The position numbers and the translations under genes were made by a program. A stretch of DNA of 38,890 bases, taken from the NCBI GenBank assembly GCA_016839705.1, contig JAEOTR010000045.1, positions 1 to 38,890 of the forward strand, written 5' to 3'. Source of the stretch: Promethearchaeota archaeon. GTDB lineage: Archaea > Asgardarchaeota > Lokiarchaeia > Sigyniarchaeales > SOKP01. Below, in pieces: positions 8,837-31,438 of this stretch; the first letter of the stretch is position 1; each line of letters opens with the position of its first letter. The notes under the pieces are model-generated. The model searched no databases. It saw nothing but the letters and a program-made list of their open reading frames with translations, and had not been told where the DNA came from.

Positions 8837-10030
8837 TTATAACTTATTTTTTTGTATTGCTTTTAAAATATCCAAATATTTTATCATTTCCTTCGTATCA
8901 CTTTTACCTATACAGAAGTCTAATTGTTTAGTAAAGTAATTATTAAATAATTTCAATTGGGGGCTAGAAATTATAAATTGAGAACCATCTTCAATCGTTT
9001 TATCGAATATTGAGTCTTTAACCTCTTCAATATTAATATTGATGATTTGTAGAGCAATCCATTCAAATAATTCCCCGACATTTTCATTTGTTTTTGCAGA
9101 GGTCTCCATATAATAAACTCCCAATTCTTTTGCTAAGCTCAAACCTTCTTCTGTAGATACTTGTCTTTCATCCTCCAAATCAACTTTATTTCCTACAAGT
9201 ATTAGAATAATATTTGGTTCCGTGACTTTATCGATAATGTCATACCATTTTCTGACATTTTCAAATGATTCTTTATTTGTTAAATCAAAAGTAATGATAC
9301 CTGCCCGTGAATCAGTTAAGTAATCTGGCCACAAGCGTTGGAATTGGTTTTGTCCTGCTAAATCCCAAATCATAAACTTTACAGAAGTATTTAATTCCTT
9401 AAATTTACATTCTTTCTTGGAGATAAAAGTTCCTATAGTTGCTTTATAATCTGCTTTAAATATTCCGTGAACATATCTTTGAACCATACTTGTTTTGCCT
9501 ACTCCACCATCTCCGATTAAGGATAGTTTGTATACATAATCTGGAGAATGTGATTTTTTCTGATAGTAATCCAATTTACGCCTTAATCTTTCAATTTCAG
9601 TATCCCGTTTAATTGTAGGAATAACTGGGCTCACGGGTAGTTCTCCATCAATAATTCGTGCTACCTTGTCAGCTGCTAAAAATGCATATGGAAAAACATC
9701 ATCTACAAATGTTGCAGGATGCAGAATAGATACTAATACATATTCTGATCCAGATTCACAAAAAATAAATCTATACTTATCAGTATCAAATGTTCCAGCA
9801 CCAAAAGTACCTAAATCAAAGTCTTGTGTTAATTTTTTAAGTATAACTTCAACTAGAGAACTGAATGCGCCTACAAATTTTTTTTCTTCGAGTTCATTAG
9901 AATCTCTTGTTAAAATATCGACTACTAAGCCATCCCTCCCGACAACAAGAACAGAAACTAATGAATCTCCTACTTCTTGCATATACCACTTGAATAATGC
10001 CATCAACCTTTCTTTATCTATGTATGTCAT
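8837..10030 (-). CDS. Roadblock/LC7 domain-Rab-like small GTPase fusion
   Basis: N-terminal roadblock-like 'SLVSVLVVGRDGLVV...'; Rab-like G1 GDGGVGKTS, ATIG, WDLAGQ, GNKVDL, ETSAK. Confidence 0.88.
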   Translation of the reverse strand: MTYIDKERLMALFKWYMQEVGDSLVSVLVVGRDGLVVDILTRDSNELEEKKFVGAFSSLVEVILKKLTQDFDLGTFGAGTFDTDKYRFIFCESGSEYVLVSILHPATFVDDVFPYAFLAADKVARIIDGELPVSPVIPTIKRDTEIERLRRKLDYYQKKSHSPDYVYKLSLIGDGGVGKTSMVQRYVHGIFKADYKATIGTFISKKECKFKELNTSVKFMIWDLAGQNQFQRLWPDYLTDSRAGIITFDLTNKESFENVRKWYDIIDKVTEPNIILILVGNKVDLEDERQVSTEEGLSLAKELGVYYMETSAKTNENVGELFEWIALQIININIEEVKDSIFDKTIEDGSQFIISSPQLKLFNNYFTKQLDFCIGKSDTKEMIKYLDILKAIQKNKL

Positions 10031-18428: not shown

Positions 18429-20147
18429 TTAGTCATTCGAAAAAGAAACATTTCTATAGTTTTTGTTCGAATTATATGCCCACATTGCTGTTTGAAAGCT
18501 TCTACAGTGAATCCATGTTTTTAAGAATTTTTTATACAACGTCCACCTGGAATACAATTTTCTTGAGCATTTTCTATGATGATCTAAGAATTGTTCATTT
18601 TCCATATTATTAACATGATAAGTTAAATGTCCCATATCATAGAACTTCCAATCTTGAGGAAAATTAGTATATATGAGTCTTTCATTTTGCTGTAATTCTT
18701 TGAATAATCTTGTGCCTGGTAAAGGCGTTAAAGTGGTAGTTTGAATAACATCAATACGATTTTTTAAAATATACTTGACTTTTCTATACATACTTTTTTC
18801 TGTTTCTGAATCAGAACCAAAAATGAATGCTCCTAAGACTGCGATTTTATATTTATTGATATTTTCGAAAGCCTGTTTATATTCCAGTTGAAGGTTCAAT
18901 TTTTTATCCATTACTTTCAGTTCTTCTGGATCAGCAGATTCTAACCCAAGAAACACCATTTTGCATCCTGCTCTTGCCGCCCATTTAATTACTTCTTCAT
19001 TGCTCCCAAAATTTAAGGAAGCTTGACAAAACCATGTTTTGGTTAGTTTTCTATCAACCATTCCCTTAAAAAGTTGGATAGCTCTCTCTTCAGCACCTTT
19101 ACCATAGCCAAGAATATTATCGTCAACAAAGAAAATCATTCTTTGATGCATTTGTTCCAATTCATCTAAGACTTCCTTATAAGGACGTTGTCGATATTTT
19201 CTTCCATTGAAAGCACTGACAGAACAGAAATAGCAATCCATAGGACAACCTCTTGAAGTTTGTAAAGTTCCAAATAAATATTTGTTGCTAAATAGATCTC
19301 GATTAGCGATTGTACTATTTTCTAAATCCAGATGAACTCCATTATATTTTTGTTTTAATGTATTATTTAAAAAATCATCGATAACAGTTGACCATACACT
19401 CTCTGCTTCCCCTACGACTACAGAATCTACATACTTTAAAGCCTCTTCAGGAACCATTGAAGCGTGTATTCCTCCCATAATCACAGGAATATTATCTTTT
19501 CTGTAATGAGCAGCAATTTCATAAGCTCTATTTGCCACTGAAGTAAATGCTGTTATTCCAACAAGATCAGCGTTTTCATATTCGAAATCCTCAAAATTCT
19601 CATCGATTATTTTAACTTGAAAGGTCTCGGGAGTTAACGCCGCCACTATCCCTAATCCCAATGGAGGAAAAGTGGAGGAGGGATTAATTGTCAATCCTGC
19701 AATCTCTTTATTAACAGGATTTATTAATAAGAGTCTCTTTTTGGTTTGGTCTTCTTTAATTTCAATAGCTTTATCCTCAATTTCAAACTGTTTTTTTAAA
19801 TCTCGAATTAGGATGTATATTCCTAAGAAGTAAAACACTACGCTAATTATGTAAACCATAAAAAATAGGATTAAAGCAAAAAGATCGGTAAAGAGAAAAA
19901 TGAGGTTGATTATTATTGTAGGTAAAGAAAAGAACAACATCGGGATAATATAAGGGGATTTATTTTTAATTTTAATAACTACATTTTTGTTTTTTGCCGT
20001 TTCTTTCAATCCAGAAAGATATGGCATAGGATAAAATACTATAAAAGAAGGGATTATTATCCAACTATAATCCAGTAAAAAAAAAATTGTTATTAGTAAC
20101 ATAGATGCTAGAAATAGAAACAAGGGGAAGATATATTTTAATCTCAA
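18429..20147 (-). CDS. B12-binding radical SAM protein with N-terminal membrane segments
   Basis: PPLGLGIVAALTP, GGIHAS, VVVGEAE (B12-binding domain); TSRGCPMDCYFC; hydrophobic first ~115 aa. Confidence 0.85.
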   Translation of the reverse strand: MRLKYIFPLFLFLASMLLITIFFLLDYSWIIIPSFIVFYPMPYLSGLKETAKNKNVVIKIKNKSPYIIPMLFFSLPTIIINLIFLFTDLFALILFFMVYIISVVFYFLGIYILIRDLKKQFEIEDKAIEIKEDQTKKRLLLINPVNKEIAGLTINPSSTFPPLGLGIVAALTPETFQVKIIDENFEDFEYENADLVGITAFTSVANRAYEIAAHYRKDNIPVIMGGIHASMVPEEALKYVDSVVVGEAESVWSTVIDDFLNNTLKQKYNGVHLDLENSTIANRDLFSNKYLFGTLQTSRGCPMDCYFCSVSAFNGRKYRQRPYKEVLDELEQMHQRMIFFVDDNILGYGKGAEERAIQLFKGMVDRKLTKTWFCQASLNFGSNEEVIKWAARAGCKMVFLGLESADPEELKVMDKKLNLQLEYKQAFENINKYKIAVLGAFIFGSDSETEKSMYRKVKYILKNRIDVIQTTTLTPLPGTRLFKELQQNERLIYTNFPQDWKFYDMGHLTYHVNNMENEQFLDHHRKCSRKLYSRWTLYKKFLKTWIHCRSFQTAMWAYNSNKNYRNVSFSND

Positions 20148-20286: not shown

Positions 20287-21516
20287 ATGACTATGAATAA
20301 AGTAGCGATAATAGGAGTAGGACATACCAAATTTGGTAAGATTCAAGATAAAGGATTAATGGATTTGTTATGTGAAGCATCTTTAACTGCGATTGAAGAT
20401 TCCAATACAAATGACAAAGATTTTGATTCTGTATATGTTGGAGCAATGAGTCCAGAAATTTTGAACAAAACCGCAGGTGTTGCAAGCGCTCTTGTTGATA
20501 GAATTAGTTTAATTCCTGCCGCTGCCGATGATATTAAAAATGGACCCGCCAGCGGAGGATCCGCAATTAAAGCAGGATTCCAGGCAATTGCTTCAGGAAT
20601 GAGTGAGTTAGTACTAGTTGTGGGGGGTGAAAAAATGACTCATATCACAACACCGGGGTATGTGACTTCTACTGTAGCCACATTAACTCAACCAGAAGCG
20701 GAAAGACCTCATGGGGTTTCATTACCCTCATTTGCAGGATTACTTACTCGTGCCTATCTTGAGAAATATAATGCGAAACTAGAATGGATTTCTGATATTG
20801 CTATTAAAAATCATAAAAATGGAGCATTGAATCCAAACGCCCATTTCCAGAAAACAATTGAAGATTTCATGAAAATTGCTATTGAAAAAGGGAGAGGTAG
20901 TTGGGATAATATTTATGAGTTTCTTAGTGATGATAAAACTAATCCTATAATTGCTGATCCATTGCGACTCTTCCATATATGCCCTATTTCTGATGGAGCT
21001 GCGGCATTAGTTTTATGTAATGCTGAGAAAGCTAAGCAGTACAATGATATGCCGATTATGATTTCTGGTGTCGGACAAGCAACAGATACTCATATCGTTT
21101 TTGAACGAGAAGAAATAATTACATTGAAGGCGTTAAAAATTTGCTCAAGTCAAGCTTATCAAATGGCAAAAAAAACACCAAAGGACATAGATGTTGCAGA
21201 ACTCCATGATGCTTTTGAGATTCTTGAAGCTGTTCAAAGTGAAGATATTGGATTCTTTAAGAAAGGTGAAGGTGCTAAAGCAGCTCATGAAGGTTTAACT
21301 GAAATTGGGGGAAAGATTCCTATTAATCCCTCGGGTGGATTAAAGGCACGTGGTCACCCTCTTGGTGCTACAGGAGTTGCTCAGGTTATTGAATTATATT
21401 GGCAATTAAGAGGGGAAGCAGGAAAAAGACAGGTAACAAGCGCAGAGACCGGGATTACTTGTAATTTTGGAGGATTTGGAAATAATATTATATCAATATT
21501 AGTTGAAAGGATGTAA
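20287..21516 (+). CDS. SCP2-type thiolase-family protein (nucleophile Cys absent)
   Basis: VAIIGVGHTKFG, GGEKMT, KNHKNGALNP, CPISDGAAA, ELHDAF, NPSGGLKARGHPLGATG; NGPASGG at the usual CASG position. Confidence 0.88.
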   Translation: MTMNKVAIIGVGHTKFGKIQDKGLMDLLCEASLTAIEDSNTNDKDFDSVYVGAMSPEILNKTAGVASALVDRISLIPAAADDIKNGPASGGSAIKAGFQAIASGMSELVLVVGGEKMTHITTPGYVTSTVATLTQPEAERPHGVSLPSFAGLLTRAYLEKYNAKLEWISDIAIKNHKNGALNPNAHFQKTIEDFMKIAIEKGRGSWDNIYEFLSDDKTNPIIADPLRLFHICPISDGAAALVLCNAEKAKQYNDMPIMISGVGQATDTHIVFEREEIITLKALKICSSQAYQMAKKTPKDIDVAELHDAFEILEAVQSEDIGFFKKGEGAKAAHEGLTEIGGKIPINPSGGLKARGHPLGATGVAQVIELYWQLRGEAGKRQVTSAETGITCNFGGFGNNIISILVERM

Positions 21517-21565: not shown

Positions 21566-23473
21566 TTAGAAATTAGAGGATTCAATTTCTGCGATAAAAA
21601 GATTTCCAATTGAAAGCCATTTTTGCTTTGTTTCCAAATCATCAACTTCCTTTTCTGTAATCTCGATTCCTTGTTTAAGATTTTTCATTGCTAAATCGTA
21701 ATTATTAAGTTCCTTATAGCAAATTCCTAACTTAATATACGTTTGGTGAATATACCAATCCTCACTCGCTAATTCTAAGGTTTCTAAAAAATGATCAACT
21801 GCTTGTTCATAATCCTCAAAATACATTAAAATTTCTCCGTAGGTATCATGATATGTCCCATTTTCAGGAAATTTAGTAACAAGATCTTGCATTATATCTA
21901 GAGATTCATCTTTTTTATCTAAATATTGTAACCAATACGCTTTATAATTGAGAAGATCGGAATCTTCAGGATATTCTTTGATCAAATCATTAATTATCTC
22001 CAATCCCGCTTCAATTTTTTGCATTCTTCGAAGTATAGATGCTTTTTTGATTTGAATATCTTTAACATTTTCTGGAAAATTTGCATACATTTCATCAATA
22101 GTCACCAAGATTTCATTATAATCCTCATAATAAATCAAAATTTTAATTTTTGAATAATATAATTCAATATTTCCTGGATTGAGATTAATTTCTTCTGTAA
22201 TTTCTGTGACGTCCTGCTCATATTGCCCTCTTATTCCCTCAATACTCTTTGGTTGAAAAATATCCGCCAGGTCTTGCCAGATTATTCCTTCTAATTTATC
22301 AAACGTTTCTTTTAGTTCTACTTTCGCCTCGATCTTATAAGCTAAGTATTTGATGTAATCAGGTATAAAATCTCGTAGAGCATTTTTTAATTTTTTATCA
22401 AATAATATTTCACAGGCATCCTCAATAATATCGTCAACTTTATCCATAATGTTTATCGTTCGTGAAAACAGTTTATTTAAATAAGTAAACTTAGTAATAT
22501 GGTCTTCCGTAATTGCTTCAAGCATTACCTCTAATCTTTCATTTTCTTGAAAGTAAAAATGCATATCTGAAGGTAATATTAATTTAAAAAATTTAATTGG
22601 ATAAATATTGCTTTCAACAATTTCATCGACATAATACTCCAATTTTGTTTCCTTAATCGCATAAGTTTTTGAAAAATCTTCCATAGAAATATAATCGGGA
22701 TACCGATCAGGATGATTAGTAGATAGAAACAGCAAGATCTTATTAAAATCGTCCTCTTTTGTGAGCATGGATTCAACTCGGGAATAATCTAACTTTAGCA
22801 CATTGTTGAGGAATCTAAATTGTATGTCCTCATCTTTAATCTTATATTTATTGAAAAATTTAATGGTATTTTGAGTAACCTCTTCAATTCTCTTACTTTC
22901 TTCATCTAATATTGATTGACGATCCAAATTATAATCTCGTAGAATTATTGAATATTCTGCTTTACCGGATCGAGTGATTCTATATTCTTTTTCCTCTTTT
23001 TTTACAAATCCTTGATCTTGTAATAAATTTAGATTTTTTGATAATGAAGATTGGTTAATTTTAAGGGGCTCTGATAAAAAATCTGCCCACTTGCAATGAT
23101 TATTATTATATAGCATCCATAAAATCCAATGGTTGTAGTTTCTCTTTCTTCTGATGATCATTGGGGGATAACTTAGCTTTCTCTTTTTTTCATCTGAACT
23201 TGATAATTCTAAAAATCTCTTTCTACCCTCCGAAGTAATTTTATAGTGCCCTCTTGATATATTTTCGACTAGATGTTTACCCTTTAATAAGGATAAATAT
23301 TTTGAGAGAGTAGATAATCGAAGTTCGAGAGGCTCATCTGTAAAATTAGCCCACTCGCATTCTTCATTATTAGATAACATCCAGAGAATGATATGCTCAA
23401 AATTTTTCTTCTCCATTACCGGAGGATTATATATCTCATGGGGAGGATAATTGATTTTATTCATGGTTCTCAT
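21566..23473 (-). CDS. Tandem winged-helix + TPR protein (putative transcription regulator), paralog 1
   Basis: Two wHTH repeats (ILWMLxNNxxCxWxxF...STLSKYLSLL/SSLSKNLNLL...YxITxxG); C-terminal TPRs (NGTYHDTYGEILMYFEDYEQAVDHF; TYIKLGICYKELNNYDLAMKNL). Confidence 0.8.
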   Translation of the reverse strand: MRTMNKINYPPHEIYNPPVMEKKNFEHIILWMLSNNEECEWANFTDEPLELRLSTLSKYLSLLKGKHLVENISRGHYKITSEGRKRFLELSSSDEKKRKLSYPPMIIRRKRNYNHWILWMLYNNNHCKWADFLSEPLKINQSSLSKNLNLLQDQGFVKKEEKEYRITRSGKAEYSIILRDYNLDRQSILDEESKRIEEVTQNTIKFFNKYKIKDEDIQFRFLNNVLKLDYSRVESMLTKEDDFNKILLFLSTNHPDRYPDYISMEDFSKTYAIKETKLEYYVDEIVESNIYPIKFFKLILPSDMHFYFQENERLEVMLEAITEDHITKFTYLNKLFSRTINIMDKVDDIIEDACEILFDKKLKNALRDFIPDYIKYLAYKIEAKVELKETFDKLEGIIWQDLADIFQPKSIEGIRGQYEQDVTEITEEINLNPGNIELYYSKIKILIYYEDYNEILVTIDEMYANFPENVKDIQIKKASILRRMQKIEAGLEIINDLIKEYPEDSDLLNYKAYWLQYLDKKDESLDIMQDLVTKFPENGTYHDTYGEILMYFEDYEQAVDHFLETLELASEDWYIHQTYIKLGICYKELNNYDLAMKNLKQGIEITEKEVDDLETKQKWLSIGNLFIAEIESSNF

Positions 23474-23520
23474 GTATTTATAGTTTATTAACCTATTTAA
23501 AATTTTATAATTTTACATTA

Positions 23521-23562
23521 GTTCGAACTTCGCGGAAAGTCTGTATAAATAAACTATATATG
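23521..23562 (+). promoter_or_regulatory. Operator (ACTT-N6-AAGT) plus BRE/TATA of peptide gene A
   Basis: gttcgAACTTcgcggaAAGTc ... aaactatatatg; near-identical copy at 23885-23925 with the same spacing. Confidence 0.65.
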
Positions 23563-23615
23563 AAAATAAAATAATAATAAAATTAACAAAAAAAAAAAAT
23601 TAAACGGTAAAAAAA

Positions 23616-23693
23616 ATGAAGAGAAAAGAAGGAAAAGTAGTAAGTAAAGTCTCTGCCGGATATAATCCAGTTTTCCAAAGTTTTGTTCGTTAA
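23616..23693 (+). CDS. Small peptide A, 25 aa: MKRKEGKVVSKVSAGYNPVFQSFVR
   Basis: Unannotated ORF with its own promoter and a downstream T-run; paralogous to 23976..24056. Confidence 0.65.
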   Translation: MKRKEGKVVSKVSAGYNPVFQSFVR

Positions 23694-23760
23694 AATATTA
23701 TTTTTTTTTATTTTATATTTTTTTCACGATTATTTTTCATTTCCATATTATAGAAATTAA

Positions 23761-23789
23761 CCTCCTAGTAGACTGAAACTACTAGGGGG
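23761..23789. other. GC-rich hairpin between the two peptide genes
   Basis: cctcCTAGTAG-actgaaa-CTACTAGgggg; cctagtag/ctactagg is a perfect 8-bp stem, extendable with G-C/G-U pairs. Confidence 0.5.
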
Positions 23790-23884
23790 TTTAAAATTTC
23801 TTTTACAGGGTTTTTAGGATAAAATACTCCAATAACCACCTTAAAATGATGTTTTTTGTATTCAATCAAAAACTTTTTCTATAA

Positions 23885-23925
23885 TTCAAACTTCGCAAAA
23901 AGTTCATATAATAAAACTATATATG
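23885..23925 (+). promoter_or_regulatory. Operator (AACTT-N6-AAGTT) plus BRE/TATA of peptide gene B
   Basis: ttcaAACTTcgcaaaAAGTT ... aaactatatatg; 25-nt operator-to-TATA offset, the same as in copy 1. Confidence 0.65.
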
Positions 23926-23975
23926 GCATTGTATAAATATATTATTTAGAACACCCTTAAAGAGGTTAAAAAAAA

Positions 23976-24056
23976 ATGAAGAAAAATGCCAAGGAAGGAT
24001 TAATAAAAATAAATAACTATGGTCAAAATCCATTATTTCGGGATTTGCTTAAATAA
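23976..24056 (+). CDS. Small peptide B, 26 aa: MKKNAKEGLIKINNYGQNPLFRDLLK
   Basis: Unannotated ORF; SD-like gaggt upstream, T-run downstream; shares MK..KEG...GxNPxF with peptide A. Confidence 0.65.
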   Translation: MKKNAKEGLIKINNYGQNPLFRDLLK

Positions 24057-24197
24057 CTTTTTTTTAATTTTGTTTTATTCTTGATTTTGGATATTTTACT
24101 TATTTTGAAATCATTTTACCTAAAATTTTAAATTTCAAAAATTATAATCATTCATTAAGAAAAATTTTGATCATTTTGATAACTTTTTTATGTCTCG

Positions 24198-24743
24198 ATG
24201 AGTGATCCTCAGAAATATAGATTTAAGATAACCGTCATCGGTGATGGTCAAGTGGGTAAAACTTCCTTGATTAAGAAGTTTACTCAAGGTTCATTTGTTA
24301 AAGATTATGTGAAGACTTTGGGAGCTCAATTTTCAAAATTTGAGAAAATAATAGAAGGGGATGAAACTCGATTGATCTTCTGGGATATAGCAGGTCAAGA
24401 TGATTTTCGTTTTTTACTCCCTACATTTTATAGAGAAAGTAATGCGGCAATTATCGTTTATAGTCTTGAAGAAAATGAGCTAGGAACGCGAAGTTTTGAG
24501 CATGTACGAAATTGGTATGAAAATATTAAGAAGTTTTGCGGGGAGATTCCGATGATACTTTTTGGTAATAAAGTTGATTTAATTGAGGAAGATGAGCTCG
24601 AAAATTCTGAGGCCCATGATTTTGTAGAGAAAAACGGATTTCTCGGATATTATTTAACCTCAGCAAAAACGGGGAAACGAGTTCATGATGCGTTTAATAC
24701 AATAATTAACGAACTATACTACAAATCCAAGGCTTTATCATAA
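24198..24743 (+). CDS. Rab-like small GTPase
   Basis: GDGQVGKTS, YVKTLG, WDIAGQ, GNKVDL, TSAKTG; no C-terminal prenylation Cys. Confidence 0.93.
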   Translation: MSDPQKYRFKITVIGDGQVGKTSLIKKFTQGSFVKDYVKTLGAQFSKFEKIIEGDETRLIFWDIAGQDDFRFLLPTFYRESNAAIIVYSLEENELGTRSFEHVRNWYENIKKFCGEIPMILFGNKVDLIEEDELENSEAHDFVEKNGFLGYYLTSAKTGKRVHDAFNTIINELYYKSKALS

Positions 24744-24780
24744 GTATAGTAATTAAAAAATATAAAATTTGAAAAAAATT

Positions 24781-27273
24781 TTAAAAATCAGCTTCCATTT
24801 CAGCAATTTCAGCTAGAAAGAGCTCTGCTATTGTGAGCCAATTTCGTTTTGTATCGAGATCACAAAAACATTTATTTGTGAATTCTTTCCCTTTTGAAAG
24901 GTTTTCAATAGCTGAATCTTGATCTCCCATTTCTTTATAACATATTCCTAGTTTAATATATGTTTGGTTAATATACCATTCATTACTCTCTAGTTCTATT
25001 GCCTTTTGGAACTCGTTAATAGCCTTTTCATATTCTTCAAAATTCATTAAAATTTCTCCATAAGTATCATGGAACATTCCATTATCTGGTTCCCGCTTGA
25101 GTAAGCCTTCTATGATCTCTAAGACATTCTCTTTTTTATCTAAATATTGTAACCAATAAATCTTGTTAAGTAAGAGATTATTATCCTCTGGATATTTTTC
25201 AATTAATTCATTAATGATTTCTAATCCTTCTTCAAGATTTTTCTTTTCTCTCAGAATATAGGCTTTTCTAATTTTTAGGCTTCTTTCACCTTCAGGAAAT
25301 TCTTTAAGTAAATGATCTAGAATATCTAATATTTCATCGAACTTATCAAAATAAAGCAATATTCGATTCTTTGAATTATAGAAATCAAGATTTTTGGGAT
25401 TTAATGTAATAGCATTGTCAATTGACTCAAGAGCTTCTTCATAGTTATTTGATTCCAATAAAAATTGACTTTTTAATTGATGATATCTTGCTTTATTTGA
25501 GTCATAGGCGTCTAATGCAATGGCATCTTCAATTTCAGTTAGTCGATCTTCTCTTTCGGAGTCAAACTCATACATCCGATTATAACCTTCTACTAATGCC
25601 ACTAGAGCGTGGGATAAAGGGTGATCAGGATAAAATTTCTGTCCTTTATCCACTATTTCAAATGCATTTTCATATTCTCCAAGTGCCATAGAAGAAAATC
25701 CCAAGACAAAATAATAAAGAGCATATAATGGATTATCTTTATCAACTTGGGTTGATTTTATGCGCTTATTCAGAAAATCTACAGATTCTTTATTGCGATT
25801 TAAATAAGCGAGAGTCATAGCTTTATAGATAATAATATCTAAGTCCTTCTTACCAGACTTAATAACCGAATTAAGAAGTTCCAATGTACTACCATATTTT
25901 TTTTCATCTAACGAGTGGATAATCTTCTTATACACTGAATCTGGTTTTGATGCCAGATACGGCCTTATTACCTCTAAAATACCTGTATCTAAATAATAAT
26001 TCATTTCATTTTCACCGATAAATTGATATTGCGAGGTCATTGAGAGACCCTCTTGTAATATTTCAGGGATATTCTGCCAAATTATACCTTCTAACTTACC
26101 AGAAATACCTAATAATTTCTTTTCTTTTTCAATTTTATATGCCAGATAATTAATATATCCTGGCAAGAATTTTAGTAATGAACTTTTCAAATCCTCATGG
26201 AAAACATATTGACAAGCTTCTTCCAAAATAGCATTTACAGTAGAATTCATGTCGAGGGGAAGTATTAGATTTGATGATTTTTCAAATAACTTATTCAAAT
26301 AGGTGAATTTTGTAATATGTTCTTCGGTAATAACTTGAAGCATCATTTCTAATTTCTCATCTGACTGAAAATAATAAATTCTGTCAGGAGGAATTTCTAA
26401 TTTGAAAAATTTTGTTGTAAAGATTTGATTTTCGACGATTTCATCAATATAATAATCAAGCGTAGTTTTTTTAATATCATACTTTGACGAAAATTCCTCA
26501 GGAAAGATATATTTCGGATACTCACTGGGATGATTAATAGAAAGAAAGAGTAAAATTTTATGAAAATCTTCTTCATTTCGTAATACATTTTTAATTTTGG
26601 AGTATTCTAGTTTTAAAACACTGTTAAGAAATCTAAACTGAGTATCTCTATCTCTTATGTCAAAATCTCTAAAAAATTTGAGCGTTTTTTGCGTTAACTC
26701 TGTAATTCGTTTGCTTTCTTCTTCTAAAATTGATTGCCTGTCTAGATCATATTGTGTTAACATTTTAGAATATTCCGATTTACCCATTTGAGTAATCTTA
26801 TATTCCTTTTCCTCTTTTCTTACAAAATTTTTACTAATTAAATCATTCAGATTTTTCGATAACGATGATTGATTTATTGACAAAGGCTCATCAAGAAAGT
26901 CTGCCCATTTGCAATAGTTATTATTATACACCATCCAAAGAATCCAGTGATCATAGTTTCGGCGGGTAAGTATTACTTTTGGAGGATAACTTAATTTCCT
27001 TCCCCCTCTTTTAGCTTGGCCCAATTCATAATATTTTTCACGTCCCTTAGATGTTATTTGGTACTGATTGAATTCACTTTTTATAATATATCCATCACGT
27101 TTAAGTCTGGATACATATATTGAAAGGGTGGATTTATTAATTTTTTCCTTTAATTCTGACCAAGAACAAACTTTATTATTGCTTAACATCCAAAGGATAA
27201 TATACTCCCAATTGGGTTTACCAATAATTGGGTTTAAAATTTCCTCAGGGGGGAAATTGCACGTGGTATCCAA
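24781..27273 (-). CDS. Tandem winged-helix + TPR protein (putative transcription regulator), paralog 2
   Basis: Same architecture as 21566..23473 (shared LSYPP..I...NY.HWILWM.YNNN.CKWADFL.EPL.INQSSLSKNL; YDLDRQSILEEESKRI; TYIKLGICYKE) with about 195 extra residues of TPR-like repeats. Confidence 0.8.
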   Translation of the reverse strand: MDTTCNFPPEEILNPIIGKPNWEYIILWMLSNNKVCSWSELKEKINKSTLSIYVSRLKRDGYIIKSEFNQYQITSKGREKYYELGQAKRGGRKLSYPPKVILTRRNYDHWILWMVYNNNYCKWADFLDEPLSINQSSLSKNLNDLISKNFVRKEEKEYKITQMGKSEYSKMLTQYDLDRQSILEEESKRITELTQKTLKFFRDFDIRDRDTQFRFLNSVLKLEYSKIKNVLRNEEDFHKILLFLSINHPSEYPKYIFPEEFSSKYDIKKTTLDYYIDEIVENQIFTTKFFKLEIPPDRIYYFQSDEKLEMMLQVITEEHITKFTYLNKLFEKSSNLILPLDMNSTVNAILEEACQYVFHEDLKSSLLKFLPGYINYLAYKIEKEKKLLGISGKLEGIIWQNIPEILQEGLSMTSQYQFIGENEMNYYLDTGILEVIRPYLASKPDSVYKKIIHSLDEKKYGSTLELLNSVIKSGKKDLDIIIYKAMTLAYLNRNKESVDFLNKRIKSTQVDKDNPLYALYYFVLGFSSMALGEYENAFEIVDKGQKFYPDHPLSHALVALVEGYNRMYEFDSEREDRLTEIEDAIALDAYDSNKARYHQLKSQFLLESNNYEEALESIDNAITLNPKNLDFYNSKNRILLYFDKFDEILDILDHLLKEFPEGERSLKIRKAYILREKKNLEEGLEIINELIEKYPEDNNLLLNKIYWLQYLDKKENVLEIIEGLLKREPDNGMFHDTYGEILMNFEEYEKAINEFQKAIELESNEWYINQTYIKLGICYKEMGDQDSAIENLSKGKEFTNKCFCDLDTKRNWLTIAELFLAEIAEMEADF

Positions 27274-27428
27274 AGTTCATCCATTGTAAAGCAATTGTAA
27301 TAATTAATATAAGAAAAGGGTTTATATATATATTTTTGGTTTGAACTCTAATTAGACTTCAAATTGTGTTATTTTGGCTAGACAAATCAAACAAGCTTAA
27401 AGCAATTATCTATCTGACTATCTAAAAG

Positions 27429-27472
27429 TAGTCTAAGAGTCCATTCAGAGTTCCTAAAATTAAACTATATAT
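27429..27472 (+). promoter_or_regulatory. Putative operator (TCTAAGAnTCCA) plus BRE/TATA for the 27514 small gene
   Basis: tctaagagtcca starts 30 nt before aaactat; same arrangement at 27934-27970. Confidence 0.5.
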
Positions 27473-27513
27473 TAAACCATTCCGTTATATTATTTAATAA
27501 AAAAAAAATAAAA

Positions 27514-27708
27514 ATGTTGAAAAAAATGACCCTAATATATGAAGAAGTAATGGTTGAAAAAGTCGAAAAGATTGAAGAACCTGAAAATCTTGGGGATTTG
27601 AATCCACAATATTTTGAGGAAGCCTCTTATCTTAAAGAAGCTCAAGAGAGAATTCAGGCTTCAGATATATATGCTGGCTCCAAATTCAATTTTTTTAGTG
27701 CTTTTTAA
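27514..27708 (+). CDS. Small acidic hypothetical protein ending ...GSKFNFFSAF
   Basis: ORF divergent from wHTH-TPR paralog 2 with its own TATA; protein-like composition. Confidence 0.65.
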   Translation: MLKKMTLIYEEVMVEKVEKIEEPENLGDLNPQYFEEASYLKEAQERIQASDIYAGSKFNFFSAF

Positions 27709-27933
27709 AACACTTATCTAATTTTTTAATTCTTAAATTTATATTCTGCTTGATTCTTATTTTGTATAATATTCTTTTCAATAATTTCTCCTCCATATTT
27801 AATAAGAAAATTCAGGAGTTATAATAACTTAAAATCTATTACTACTTCCAAGATTTAAACTTTTGCTAAATCTTATAAAATCAATTGAATTTCAATTAGT
27901 TTTGTTATTTACAAAAAAAGAATCTATAACAAA

Positions 27934-27972
27934 TCTAAGATTCCACGTAAACTTTTCGAAATAAAACTATTA
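27934..27972 (+). promoter_or_regulatory. Putative operator (TCTAAGAnTCCA) plus BRE/TATA for the 28010 gene cluster
   Basis: tctaagattcca starts 30 nt before aaactat. Confidence 0.5.
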
Positions 27973-28009
27973 AACGAACCTTGATCTAACTAATTACAAG
28001 AAAAAAAGT

Positions 28010-28270
28010 GTGAGTGTGATAAAAAATATGAATCAATTATTAGTTAAAGAGGATGCCTCTTTCGAACTTGAGGATCTACATTTGATTTTAATAAAAAGTA
28101 TCAAAAAAGATAGTGAAAAGACTAAAACCAATGCTAGAATGCTGTATGAGATATACAGTAGTTTGATGAATCCTAAGTACTCTGAGAATAAGATTACACC
28201 TGAAGACGCACAAATCAAGTTAGATGCAATGATGCCAAGAAATAATCAGGGCCTCATCAGAACTTTTTAA
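28010..28270 (+). CDS. Small hypothetical protein ending ...NNQGLIRTF
   Basis: First of three co-oriented small ORFs. Confidence 0.65.
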   Translation: MSVIKNMNQLLVKEDASFELEDLHLILIKSIKKDSEKTKTNARMLYEIYSSLMNPKYSENKITPEDAQIKLDAMMPRNNQGLIRTF

Positions 28271-28281
28271 GAACTTCAAGT

Positions 28282-28554
28282 ATGCTATGGAGGATAATAA
28301 AATACCAAAAGAGGTGGTTTAATCTGACAGAAAGTATTCGAATAATAACTCCCGATTTAAGGGGAGTGATTTATGTACCACGAGAAGAATTGATTGAGTT
28401 TGAGCCAAAAAAAATATTTAAAGAGGCTCTATCTGACAGGAATGAACTAGACTTAATAGAACGTAAAAGAGACCTGAAAAGATGGAAACAATCTTTGGGT
28501 TATTATAGTTTGCATCCTGATAAATTCAGGTTTGGTTTAAGAGATTTAAAATAA
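28282..28554 (+). CDS. Small hypothetical protein (possible CTG start at 28324 after GAGGTG)
   Basis: Co-oriented small ORF; SD-like gaggtg at 28311-16 sits 7 nt before an in-frame CTG. Confidence 0.6.
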   Translation: MLWRIIKYQKRWFNLTESIRIITPDLRGVIYVPREELIEFEPKKIFKEALSDRNELDLIERKRDLKRWKQSLGYYSLHPDKFRFGLRDLK

Positions 28555-28571
28555 AATGTATAAAAAATGGG

Positions 28572-28838
28572 GTGATAACAAAAATGGTAGAAGTATTATT
28601 AAAGAAAAATGCTCTTAAAGCACCAATCGAATTTGAGGATTTAATAATTTTTGAAGAGCTCCCCACGGTTGAAGAAGATTATGAGATAGTTAAGGTCAAA
28701 TTAGAAGAGAAACCACTCAAAAAAGCATTATCAAAATTATTGAAGAGGGCTAAATATAATGCTAAATATTTGGAGGAGATGGTTGATGTGAATAAAGTCA
28801 AAAGAGATATACATTACAGGAGGTATGGACTTTTCTAA
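28572..28838 (+). CDS. Small hypothetical protein ending ...HYRRYGLF (probable ATG at 28584)
   Basis: SD-like ggggtga before the ATG; charged helical composition. Confidence 0.65.
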   Translation: MITKMVEVLLKKNALKAPIEFEDLIIFEELPTVEEDYEIVKVKLEEKPLKKALSKLLKRAKYNAKYLEEMVDVNKVKRDIHYRRYGLF

Positions 28839-28859
28839 TATTTTTATTTCCTTATCAAA

Positions 28860-28950
28860 CTGATTTTATTCTGAGTTCAAATTTCAGGGAGAGATAAAAT
28901 CAGGGGGAGGGGGACCCTTTCCAGCCCCCTCCTATTCTATTATTTTTTTT
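28860..28950 (+). terminator. Double hairpin followed by a T-tract downstream of the small-gene cluster
   Basis: ctgattttat(28860-69)/ataaaatcag(28894-903); ggaggggg(28906-13)/ccccctcc(28925-32); then tattctattatttttttt. Confidence 0.5.
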
Positions 28951-29103
28951 TATTCTGGTATATAATTTTACATTTTTGTTTATAGTCTAAGATATCATAT
29001 ATTCAGAGTAAACCAAAATTTTAAATTTAAGAAAAACTGATATTAGTTTAGTTACGAATTTTTGAAAATCATATATAAAATCTGATTTCTTGGAATTAAC
29101 TCT

Positions 29104-29664
29104 ATGAGTGATAATGGGCGTAAGTTTAGATTCAAGGTAACCGTAATTGGGGATGGTAGGGTTGGGAAAACATCCTTAATAAAAAGGTTCACTCAGGGCT
29201 CTTTTAAAAAAGACTATGTTAAAACAATCGGAGCACAATTCTCGGTATACGATGAAATCATCAAGGGAGATAAAATTAGATTATTGTTTTGGGATATTGC
29301 GGGTCAGGACACATTCCACTTTTTGCGACCAAATTTTTTCAAAAATAGTAGAGCGGCGATCATTGTTTACAGTCTTGAAGATAATAAATTTGGGAAAGAA
29401 AGTTTTGATCATATAATAAATCCTTGGTATAAAGACATCACAAAATTCTGTGGTGATGTCCCTATTGTAGTATTTGGAAACAAGGTTGATTTGGTTGATA
29501 AAGATAAAATAAACGATTCTAAGATCCAAGAATTAATCGAGAGTAATAATTTTCTAGGACACTACATAACTTCTGCAGAAACAGGGGAAGGTGTCATTGA
29601 AGCATTTAACGCAATCATAGAAACACTATATAGCAAATTTAAATCTATGTCTGCCGAATTATAA
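29104..29664 (+). CDS. Rab-like small GTPase
   Basis: GDGRVGKTS, YVKTIG, WDIAGQ, GNKVDL, G5 variant TSAETG. Confidence 0.93.
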   Translation: MSDNGRKFRFKVTVIGDGRVGKTSLIKRFTQGSFKKDYVKTIGAQFSVYDEIIKGDKIRLLFWDIAGQDTFHFLRPNFFKNSRAAIIVYSLEDNKFGKESFDHIINPWYKDITKFCGDVPIVVFGNKVDLVDKDKINDSKIQELIESNNFLGHYITSAETGEGVIEAFNAIIETLYSKFKSMSAEL

Positions 29665-29770
29665 AGCACTTAATTCCAAAGATTACCCACAAATTTTATA
29701 ATGTAGAATATCTGATTATCTTTCATAAAATAATTATTTAAATTGGTAATTTGATCTTACTGAAAATTCA

Positions 29771-30322
29771 ATGAATGATAGCGATTATGTTTTTAAAGTT
29801 GCCGTAGTTGGTGATGGGAGAGTTGGTAAAACCTCTTTAATTAAAATGTTTACTCATAGTTCTTTTGAGAAGGAATATATCAAAACGATTGGTGCCCAAC
29901 TCTCTTCTTATATTAAAGAAATAGATGGAGATAAGATTAAATTGCTATTCTGGGATATTGCCGGTCAAGACAGCTTCCATTTTCTGCGACCATCATTTTA
30001 TAATAATAGTAGAGCTGCTATTATTGTATATAGTCTTGAAGAAAACAAACTTGGTAAAGAGAGTTTTAAACATATTCAAGATTGGTATGAAGAAATTACT
30101 AAATATTGTGGCGATTTACCTATTGTTGTTTTTGGAAATAAAGTCGATTTAGTACATGAAAAAGAAATAGATAATTCAGTATTACAAGGAATTATTAAGG
30201 AGAATAATTTTCGTGGTTCCTATCTAACCTCGGCAAAAACAGGAAATGGAGTTGTTAAAGCATTCAATGCAATTATAGAAGAACTCTACGTTAAATTTAA
30301 ATCAATATCTCCAGAATTATAA
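29771..30322 (+). CDS. Rab-like small GTPase (tandem paralog)
   Basis: GDGRVGKTS, YIKTIG, WDIAGQ, GNKVDL, TSAKTG. Confidence 0.93.
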   Translation: MNDSDYVFKVAVVGDGRVGKTSLIKMFTHSSFEKEYIKTIGAQLSSYIKEIDGDKIKLLFWDIAGQDSFHFLRPSFYNNSRAAIIVYSLEENKLGKESFKHIQDWYEEITKYCGDLPIVVFGNKVDLVHEKEIDNSVLQGIIKENNFRGSYLTSAKTGNGVVKAFNAIIEELYVKFKSISPEL

Positions 30323-30388: not shown

Positions 30389-31438
30389 TTGAATATGCTT
30401 CTATTAATAGTTGATGGTTGGATTAACGGGATAACAGCATCATTTTCATTTCTTTTAGGAAGCATTCTAGGGTTAACTATAATTAATCAAGCTAGAAAAA
30501 TCGATGCTAGACTACTTTTAATTATGGGATTTAATATATTTATCAGTGCATTTTTTTGGCTGGCCAATTTTAGTGATTTTATTTCAGTTATCTTCACTTC
30601 TACTAATCTACCTAATCCAAATGGTTGGCTGGGAATCTTTTATCTGATGTGGGGTCCCTTGGGATTTTTAATTTCATTATACATTGGTGCGGAACTCTTC
30701 TTCCCCGAGAAAAAGATGTATTTCATTGTACCATTTCTGATTTTAGCTATTTTTTATGAACTGGTAATTTTCATTAATCCATTAAACAGTTTTATTTTTG
30801 AATACCCTGCAATTTCGGGTGAAAATTTAATTCAGACAAATTTTATTCGATTTGGTATCCCATTTATTCTAAATTATTTCTTTATAATTTCAGGATTAAT
30901 TTTTCTTGGATTTGGATATTTAATTAAAGGTATTAGCTCGAAAGGTATAATAAGGAAAAAATTTTTCCTATTGTCAGTAGGTTATTTTCTCTTCATTGGA
31001 TTTCCTATATTAGCAATTTTTGTACAAAGTTTTTATACCTACTTTGTAAGATTAGGAATGGTGAGTGGTTTTTTCTTTTTTTATTTTGGTCTAAGAGAAG
31101 CACCGGTTGAAAAAAGGAGACAAAAACCAATTAAAAAGGAATTACAGGTAAAAGAATCATTATTTAGATTGTATGAAAGACCTGATCATATCACTGAAGA
31201 AGAGGTAACCTTTCATAGAGAGAGGAAGATTTGTTTGATTTGTAAGAATGATTTATCCAGATTAAATTACATTTGCCCTAAATGTAATGCTCTTTATTGT
31301 AATAAATGTTCTGAAGAGTTAAGTAACTTGGAAAATATGTGTTGGGTCTGTGACGAACCTTTTGATGAAACAAAACCGATAAGACCATATAAGAAGGTAA
31401 AACCTGATAAAGATATGGATGTACCTAGAAAGACATAG
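30389..31438 (+). CDS. Polytopic (~7 TM) membrane protein with C-terminal RING-like C4C4 zinc finger
   Basis: About 7 hydrophobic segments, then CLICK...ICPKC..LYCNKC...MCWVC. Confidence 0.75.
   Translation: MNMLLLIVDGWINGITASFSFLLGSILGLTIINQARKIDARLLLIMGFNIFISAFFWLANFSDFISVIFTSTNLPNPNGWLGIFYLMWGPLGFLISLYIGAELFFPEKKMYFIVPFLILAIFYELVIFINPLNSFIFEYPAISGENLIQTNFIRFGIPFILNYFFIISGLIFLGFGYLIKGISSKGIIRKKFFLLSVGYFLFIGFPILAIFVQSFYTYFVRLGMVSGFFFFYFGLREAPVEKRRQKPIKKELQVKESLFRLYERPDHITEEEVTFHRERKICLICKNDLSRLNYICPKCNALYCNKCSEELSNLENMCWVCDEPFDETKPIRPYKKVKPDKDMDVPRKT

Follow-up and report, generated by a model that had tools for sequence, protein, structure and literature searches.

The subject of this analysis is a twice-repeated gene cassette in a 38,890-nucleotide stretch of DNA from a Promethearchaeota archaeon (the window), which is contig C30 of a 3.36 Mb genome of 31% GC, G000. 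In each copy, the gene for a large winged helix-turn-helix and tetratricopeptide-repeat (wHTH-TPR) protein, T1 or T2, is divergent from small open reading frames (ORFs) and one or two Rab-like GTPase genes; this two-unit layout, with which the preliminary description of the window began, was recovered by ORF calls and Pfam. The regulatory module is real, conserved and undescribed in the literature searched; this literature, which left out most subscription papers, yielded no description of the regulator family. The reading we prefer, and on balance believe, is that T1 and T2 are inducible transcription activators and that the divergent slot holds effectors, with nucleases and viperin among the deep homologues and microproteins among the inherited members. 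Its components differ in firmness. Binding of DNA by the family is very probable and activation of transcription is likely; that the small proteins are output rather than signal is fairly likely, and that stress or infection is the trigger is a tentative proposal.

In the mechanism proposed, T1 and T2 would be one-component activators that belong to a protein family specific to a single Lokiarchaeia family. The ACT-N8-AGT dyad that lies 10 bp before the B recognition element (BRE) and TATA box may be the binding site of their tandem winged helices, which would so help recruit TFB and TBP, with a specificity that would be set by the subclade-variable first winged helix (wHTH1), the second (wHTH2) being nearly invariant, and with the TPR array as the putative sensor. 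The output would be a regulon of tiny genes (basic peptides of 22-31 residues, LNPRY and NAKY microproteins, zinc-knuckle peptides and, at some loci, a hairpin) whose products would act within the cell as effectors. The setting may be a stress or antiviral programme, to judge from the NYN-RNase operons, with viperin or HerA, that are found opposite deep members of the family. The Rab-like GTPase would be a separately transcribed neighbour, duplicated together with the regulator.

Regulators, predicted operators and proposed regulon

The two regulators and the predicted sites that flank them are as follows:

21566..23473, minus strand: T1, regulator of 635 residues, with tandem winged helices, a helical middle and a TPR array (Pfam HTH_45/HTH_34 twice, TPR)
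23526..23560, plus strand: T1-type operator and BRE/TATA box of p25, between T1 and p25 (AACT-N7-AAGT at 23526-23540, box at 23551)
23889..23923, plus strand: T1-type operator and box of p26 (operator 23889-23903, box at 23914)
24781..27273, minus strand: T2, regulator of 830 residues (wHTH1 22-85, wHTH2 107-174, wHTH3 ~258-329, TPR superhelix 430-830)
27343..27360, minus strand: dyad resembling an operator, in the promoter of T2 itself (score 8.2; none of 200 shuffles scored as high)
27420..27471, plus strand: T2-type operator and box of p64 (core 27437-27451, box at 27462)
27939..27971, plus strand: T2-type operator and box of the o86-o90-o88 operon (operator 27939-27953, box at 27964)

T1 and T2 are 47.5% identical, and T2 has about 200 additional TPR residues; the TPR match in Pfam is to TPR_2 (E 5e-17). 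The AlphaFold model of T2 (mean pLDDT 85, pTM 0.52) has a helical middle before the TPR superhelix and revealed the third winged helix at residues ~258-329, which corrects the earlier description. Fold searches with the whole model returned TPR proteins only, with OGT and BBS4 best (Z ~24); PlcR (Z 16.4), NprR (Z 14.4) and RapH rank 23-44 among generic TPR matches. A single-sequence fold of the N-terminal 410 residues of the regulator was of low confidence (pLDDT 38), and the N-terminal profile matched only PadR-like wHTH domains among known structures. No WYL domain was found in the regulators with Pfam or NCBIfam; their C-terminal part is TPR.

The regulator is almost confined to one Lokiarchaeia family and has expanded there. 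A first profile found it in 56 of 68 genomes of this family and in 1 of 232 others across the phylum; a deeper profile found it in 105 of 134 family genomes, in the single genome of family f3 and in 1 of 25 others in the class. The proteins are mostly 630-1340 residues long, and G000 has five paralogues. Two closed genomes (4.3-4.4 Mb) of a sister family, to which we presume the cultured Lokiarchaeon strains to belong, lack the regulator, so a test in a cultured Lokiarchaeon is probably unworkable.

The predicted operator (from 31 training sites plus the G000 targets) is a dyad, ACT-N8-AGT, that precedes a AAACTATA box by 10 bp. It is carried by the promoter-proximal small genes, and its flanks vary with the regulator subclade. 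The recognition helix of wHTH1 is constant inside subclades, differs across them and co-varies with the operator class; that of wHTH2 is almost invariant. Within unit 1, the promoters of p25 and p26 are a 52-nucleotide direct repeat of 77% identity, and sites equivalent to the operator of the o86 operon exist at four homologous loci (L031, L032, L033 and L048; such L-numbers denote loci excised from other genomes).

Subclade operator models were trained on other genomes only and then scored on all 699 boxes in G000. The T1 model placed p26 first, followed by a 27-mer on C37 and p25 (rank 3), and the top match of the model for the subclade of 850-residue regulators was a NAKY gene on C37. The T2 model placed at the top p64 and five unlinked LNPRY genes, with scores of 18-28, and gave a sixth a score of 2, the mean being -36; the operator is thus retained before six orphan LNPRY genes (two on C17, and one each on C20, C21, C52 and C85) and not before the copies on C32 and C18. 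For a subclade that has no member in G000, the corresponding model gave nothing above 0 among the 699 boxes. These subclade-matched operators indicate that each regulator almost certainly controls its adjacent small genes, as had been proposed. The shared promoter motif of the preliminary description survives as the dyad core and the AAACTATA box, the remaining motif being unlike between the units; a promoter for each small ORF is found in unit 1, and in unit 2 just two of the four ORFs (27514 and 28028) have their own.

The usual binding site of archaeal activators is upstream of BRE/TATA (PMC5937170), and the like position of the predicted operator is what argues here for activation. The dyad in T2's own promoter makes autoregulation of T2 likely.

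Three further TCTAAGA.TCCA matches in G000 were rejected as operators, being inside genes or without a box. Elsewhere in this genome, a T1-like operator with a box precedes a 67-residue ORF and a 249-residue ORF (C93:2324, minus strand, and C86:7250, plus strand), the longer of which resembles a histidine-kinase fragment; both are possible regulon members.

Some leucine-rich-repeat proteins (P0075, P0090, P0072, P0139-P0146) carry this pair of wHTH domains at their C-terminus, with the leucine-rich repeat in place of the TPR as putative sensor. A truncated paralogue on C13 of G000 has 458 residues and little or no TPR, and downstream of it lies an 84-residue ORF with a ubiquitin-like GG end. 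Frequent neighbours of T1- and T2-type loci are MalT-like TPR proteins of 600-690 residues (27 loci), oligopeptidase F (19) and B12-radical SAM proteins (8), for example at L057, L064, L067, L070, L077, L082 and L100. The window has a B12-radical SAM gene (18429-20147) and also a thiolase-fold gene (20287-21516), convergent with T1, which has the nucleophile motif GPASG and lacks the usual Cys.

The small genes and a possible peptide feedback

The divergent small genes, with a structured element that follows them in unit 2 and the relatives of p64 elsewhere in G000, are:

23616..23693, plus strand: p25, basic peptide of 25 residues, IIIxN..GYN family, with a T-tract 3' of the stop
23976..24056, plus strand: p26, basic peptide of 26 residues, with orthologues at L176, L179 and L181
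27514..27708, plus strand: p64, acidic LNPRY-family microprotein with an aromatic C-terminal residue; 8 other copies in the genome
28028..28270, plus strand: o86, LNPRY-family microprotein with its ATG at 28028, in a frame that is open from a GTG at 28010
28282..28554, plus strand: o90, HPxK..FGLKDL family; start uncertain, conservation limited to the last 30-60 residues
28572..28838, plus strand: o88, NAKY-family microprotein, an LNPRY homologue by alignment with hhalign
28885..28940, plus strand: purine-rich hairpin, candidate terminator or RNA element, between o88 and G2 (-26.8 kcal/mol for the 80-nucleotide stretch covering it)
C17:43186-43859 (two), C85:106629, C20:9122, C21:11275, C52:50416, C32:77329, C18:193: the eight unlinked LNPRY genes of G000

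Small peptides had been described in both units; unit 1 has them (25 and 26 residues), and the products of unit 2 are microproteins of 64-90 residues. To place them, 100 homologous loci were excised from 25 genomes and their short ORFs clustered. The recurring families are NAKY (28 loci), HPxK (22), C2C2 zinc knuckles (14), LNPRY (8), HWVTAG and CPxC. Nearly all lie on the strand divergent from, and upstream of, the regulator (NAKY 29/29, LNPRY 12/12, HPxK 22/26, the other 4 belonging to the next unit), and the motifs of the 22-31-residue peptides have 40, 16, 8 and 7 matches on this strand against 0 on the control strand. Ratios of nonsynonymous to synonymous substitution (dN/dS, from disjoint pairs) are 0.15-0.17 for the 22-28-residue peptides, 0.28 for NAKY and 0.37 for LNPRY; the value for HPxK, 0.57, comes from 2 pairs only. 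With values of 0.15-0.37 in the well-sampled families, the small ORFs are, by this measure, real conserved genes under purifying selection.

Individual cases agree with this picture. The orthologues of p26 are 73-77% identical to it and have the same operator upstream; p25, whose family has a dN/dS of 0.17, has a paralogue with the same operator on C37; the relatives of o90 are mostly peptides of 24-31 residues. LNPRY and NAKY alignments match each other with an hhalign probability of 91% (E 9e-7) and are thus homologous, and an aromatic C-terminal residue is usual in both. NAKY is present in 80 of 134 family genomes and in 0 of 25 in families f2, f4, f5, f6 and f33, a range equal to that of the regulator, and the LNPRY expansion is particular to G000, with 10 matches against 0-5 in relatives. 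In the ESM Atlas, the best match of p64 was PaREP1 at 0.83, under the lead threshold, and the microprotein profiles had no meaningful match to NYN RNases or to neighbouring large proteins. That the small ORFs might be precursors of ribosomally synthesized and post-translationally modified peptides was ruled out, there being no modifying enzyme among the conserved neighbours.

The contents of the operator-driven slot vary between peptide, microprotein, non-coding hairpin and secreted protein. In ten T2-type loci, the slot has a non-coding purine-rich hairpin and no shared ORF. The element, which is conserved at L053, L056, L057, L060-L062, L065, L073, L079, L082 and L111, consists of a purine-rich leader and a hairpin with GAGAGCTC/GAGCTCTC arms (in L065, ~215-260 bp upstream of the regulator); its outer stem hardly varies, apart from a single G-C/A-U swap that divides the sequences 6 to 4, and the element is a possible small RNA. 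Rfam had no match for the purine-rich hairpin. In a sister subclade (L063, L086, L105, L106 and L108), the operator drives a signal-peptide protein of 240-300 residues.

Another explanation for the small genes is intracellular feedback, in which the small proteins would dock on the TPR of their own inducing regulator and adjust how active it is, giving a timer or a bistable switch, with an oligopeptidase clearing the peptides. The likeness of the TPR superhelix to those of PlcR and NprR fits this idea, as do the conserved motifs N-[PA]-[RK]-Y-x-E, [HN]P.K[YF] and GYN, the aromatic C-termini and the operator-like dyad before T2; moreover, oligopeptidase F adjoins 19 of the 100 regulators, in 14 genomes, but this link comes mostly from a single ancestral locus, and the window does not have it. 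Against feedback, peptides and receptors are not paired one to one: NAKY serves the T2, 850-residue and 990-residue subclades and HPxK serves both T1 and T2, while orthologues of 636 residues, which have lost ~200 residues of TPR (L048 and L052), retain the same microproteins. The slot is in other cases filled by a hairpin, a secreted protein or, in deep homologues, an RNase operon, and the six distant operator-bearing copies suggest that it is the dose of the product that matters. The proposal that the peptides are cognate, RRNPP-like ligands is not supported, and we consider peptide feedback improbable. It could, like the gating by a GTPase considered below, coexist with activation by T1 and T2.

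The Rab-like GTPases

The window has three GTPases of the clade in question:

24198..24743, plus strand: G1, Rab-like GTPase of the EENxLG-insert clade, no C-terminal cysteine
29104..29664, plus strand: G2, Rab-like GTPase, Ras family match
29771..30322, plus strand: G3, Rab-like GTPase, tandem paralogue of G2 (69%)

All match the Ras family (E 1e-39 to 1e-42), with 59-69% mutual identity. They are called Rab-like because the C-terminal geranylgeranylation cysteines are absent (none of the three ends with a Cys) while the nucleotide-binding boxes, G1-G5, are intact.

Of the 124 regulators, 53 have a member of the clade within 5 kb, and 62 of 135 clade members lie beside a regulator, against ~2% expected by chance. 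A conserved adjacency of regulators to short ORFs and to this clade, proposed at the outset as a check, is therefore found in the homologous loci. The tree of the Rabs is congruent with that of the regulators (Mantel rho 0.60 over 31 pairs), and the clade has 2-12 copies per genome within the genus against 0-2 in other families. The Rab-regulator pair has been duplicated as a unit; the congruence is not co-evolution, since kin share labels.

These observations could be explained by a GTPase-gated transcription factor, on which the Rab, bound to GTP or GDP, docks as the input, the microproteins being the outputs. TPR proteins bind small GTPases elsewhere, and BBSome-ARL6 and p67phox, which binds Rac, are among the fold matches. 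However, tandem duplication alone predicts congruent trees; no Rab of this clade was found beside the 850-residue, 990-residue or deep regulators; the clade, with its diagnostic insert, occurs in genomes that lack the regulator (G036 and G038); and more than half of its members are away from regulators, often beside long TPR or seven-transmembrane-type genes. Moreover, G1 has a conserved promoter that is separate from the operator and without it, and on this ground the Rab was rejected as a member of the regulon; before G2, degenerate operator words are present at 28983-29009. Gating is thus unlikely, slightly more so than peptide feedback, and the Rab is also unlikely to be an output, as the preliminary description had allowed, given its own operator-less promoter and its absence from those three groups of regulators. 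A complex prediction for G017 (the 636-residue regulator, Rab and LNPRY, with the microprotein scored) gave a score of 0.00 and was counted neither for nor against.

Members of the clade are also fused at the C-terminus of a 660-680-residue protein (G000 C53:340-2316, G006 C1:2776760, G016 C59:223), the start of which resembles, by eye, CDC48 N-domains. A further Ras-family GTPase of the window (8837-10030) has a 165-residue N-terminal extension and belongs to a different clade, with 37-38% identity to G1-G3. The gene 3' of G3 (30389-31438) encodes a 349-residue multi-pass membrane protein with a C-terminal zinc ribbon, which matches a Promethearchaeota family (Atlas 0.98) and has homologues often near Rab-clade genes; it was rejected as a constant partner, having just 2 partial matches in the 100 loci.

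Deep homologues, a possible inducible defence and known systems

A profile of the N-terminal 400 residues searched against 1.84 billion representatives gave 234 matches, which include divergent wHTH-TPR proteins of 780-1340 residues. Eleven deep homologues were chosen by length and divergence, the first three before any neighbours had been seen. In eight cases, the divergent gene encodes an NYN RNase of regnase-like type (PF11977; the rescored ones have E 1e-8 to 1e-13), and the other three homologues face a NOV_C nuclease, a ubiquitin-like gene (L277:214-510) and a 72-residue ORF. After the NYN RNase comes viperin (pVip, E 1e-75 to 1e-49), an RNase H-like gene or, at three loci, HerA/DUF87, accompanied or not by a nuclease; the deep loci are L271, L280 and L286 (viperin), L275, L282 and L285 (HerA/DUF87), and L283. 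A PD-T4-1-like match is also among the antiviral effectors beside deep homologues. The three best deep matches in GTDB genomes likewise face an NYN RNase and are patchy within the genus, and another deep subclade faces a zinc-ribbon gene of 65-80 residues. No PADLOC model matched the NYN RNase of these operons. Lokiarchaeal viperins are antiviral in E. coli, where they protect from T7 (PMC11291487). A wHTH-TPR regulator divergent from an NYN RNase followed by viperin or a HerA-nuclease is thus a candidate for an undescribed Asgard defence operon, and this link of the deep homologues is new here.

In a maximum-likelihood tree, the microprotein-linked core regulators form a 92/92 group, and the RNase-linked members lie on both sides of the longest inner branch, being one clade in 0% of bootstrap trees. 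RNase linkage would be ancestral if the root lies outside the core, and the module is possibly derived from a defence regulator.

Several points weigh against the preferred reading. Long branches and the lack of a root in the tree leave it unproven that RNase linkage is ancestral; the viperin cases come from three closely related members of a single lineage; and the core operator is at best weak before the deep RNase operons (p 0.01-0.02, uncorrected, in 2 of 18 effector-facing loci). No NYN RNase is near the 100 core regulators and there is no viperin in G000, so the units of the window need not be defensive. For the microproteins there is no counterpart in Pfam or among solved structures, profile searches of the PDB for LNPRY and NAKY giving nothing below E 0.1.

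A bolder version of the activator reading is that infection- or stress-sensing Asgard factors, acting via the TPR or a bound Rab-like GTPase, activate an immunity regulon, with RNase and viperin in deep members and microprotein or small-RNA effectors in vertically inherited ones. We regard this as a long shot; if true, it would be an archaeal counterpart of the induction of interferon-stimulated genes, and possibly the first Asgard case of a DNA-binding factor linked directly to a GTPase of the Ras superfamily. Very little is known of Asgard gene regulation or of the roles of the many Asgard Rab-like GTPases, and the module brings together a defined regulator and a predicted operator, for which four subclades provide internal controls of specificity, with a putative genome-wide regulon of unannotated microproteins that are under selection and a linked GTPase clade. 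The RNase/viperin link suggests a route for the induction of Asgard antiviral genes, a point of relevance to how inducible innate immunity arose.

The RRNPP(A) systems are recognised by features that include a propeptide of 10-100 residues, a Sec signal or SHP-like hydrophobic region, a TPR receptor of ~250-500 residues and adjacency (PMC10075063). The window has conserved ORFs of 25-90 residues, a TPR receptor (by Pfam, model and fold search) and adjacency at the locus, with six operator-bearing copies unlinked. No signal was found in the first 35 residues of the small proteins, where the maximal 8-residue Kyte-Doolittle hydropathy is 0.36-1.65 (net charge -6 to +7) against 3.1 for the signal-peptide protein of the sister subclade; a hydrophobic core is thus lacking, as first noted. 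Secreted quorum sensing, as a true RRNPP equivalent, has in its favour the HTH and TPR beside short genes and basic N-termini that resemble those of SHP propeptides, which are exported by a non-Sec route (PMC10075063), but this hydropathy, receptors of 635-830 residues and the lack of Opp or of a conserved exporter for peptides in the genes that are frequent neighbours make it highly improbable.

The RRNPP(A) systems of Bacillota (PlcR-PapR, NprR-NprX, Rgg-SHP and AimR-AimP) nevertheless resemble the T1/T2 family in the N-terminal DNA-binding part and C-terminal TPR, in the adjacent divergent small genes under regulator control, in the lineage-wide expansion of paralogues and in the fold match of the TPR to PlcR and NprR. 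They differ in that the T1/T2 family has three winged helices rather than one HTH, a length of 630-1340 residues and a better fold match to OGT and BBS4, and has several unrelated small-gene families per regulator, with neither signal peptides nor a one-to-one code of receptor and peptide.

Ptr2 is an archaeal BRE-proximal activator, as are TFB-RF1 and EarA. The latter two share with the present system a palindromic site located just upstream of BRE/TATA at a constant spacing, including that in the regulator's own promoter (PMC5937170), whereas T1 and T2 are large multi-wHTH proteins with a TPR array and a predicted regulon that consists mostly of microprotein genes. BrxR and CapW, of the WYL family, likewise combine a wHTH regulator with a sensor domain beside a defence operon (PMC9122589, PMC13622015), a likeness that extends to the deep homologues facing NYN RNase, viperin, HerA or NOV_C; in T1 and T2, however, the sensor would be TPR and not WYL, the position of the site suggests activation where WYL proteins repress, and the units of the window would control microproteins rather than nucleases. 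Finally, the Asgard Thor-Rab GTPases also have a Rab-like G-domain without C-terminal cysteines (PMC10933270), and the clade in the window is set apart from them by its TIGAQF and WDIAGQ motifs, its EENxLG insert and its tie to the locus of a transcription regulator.

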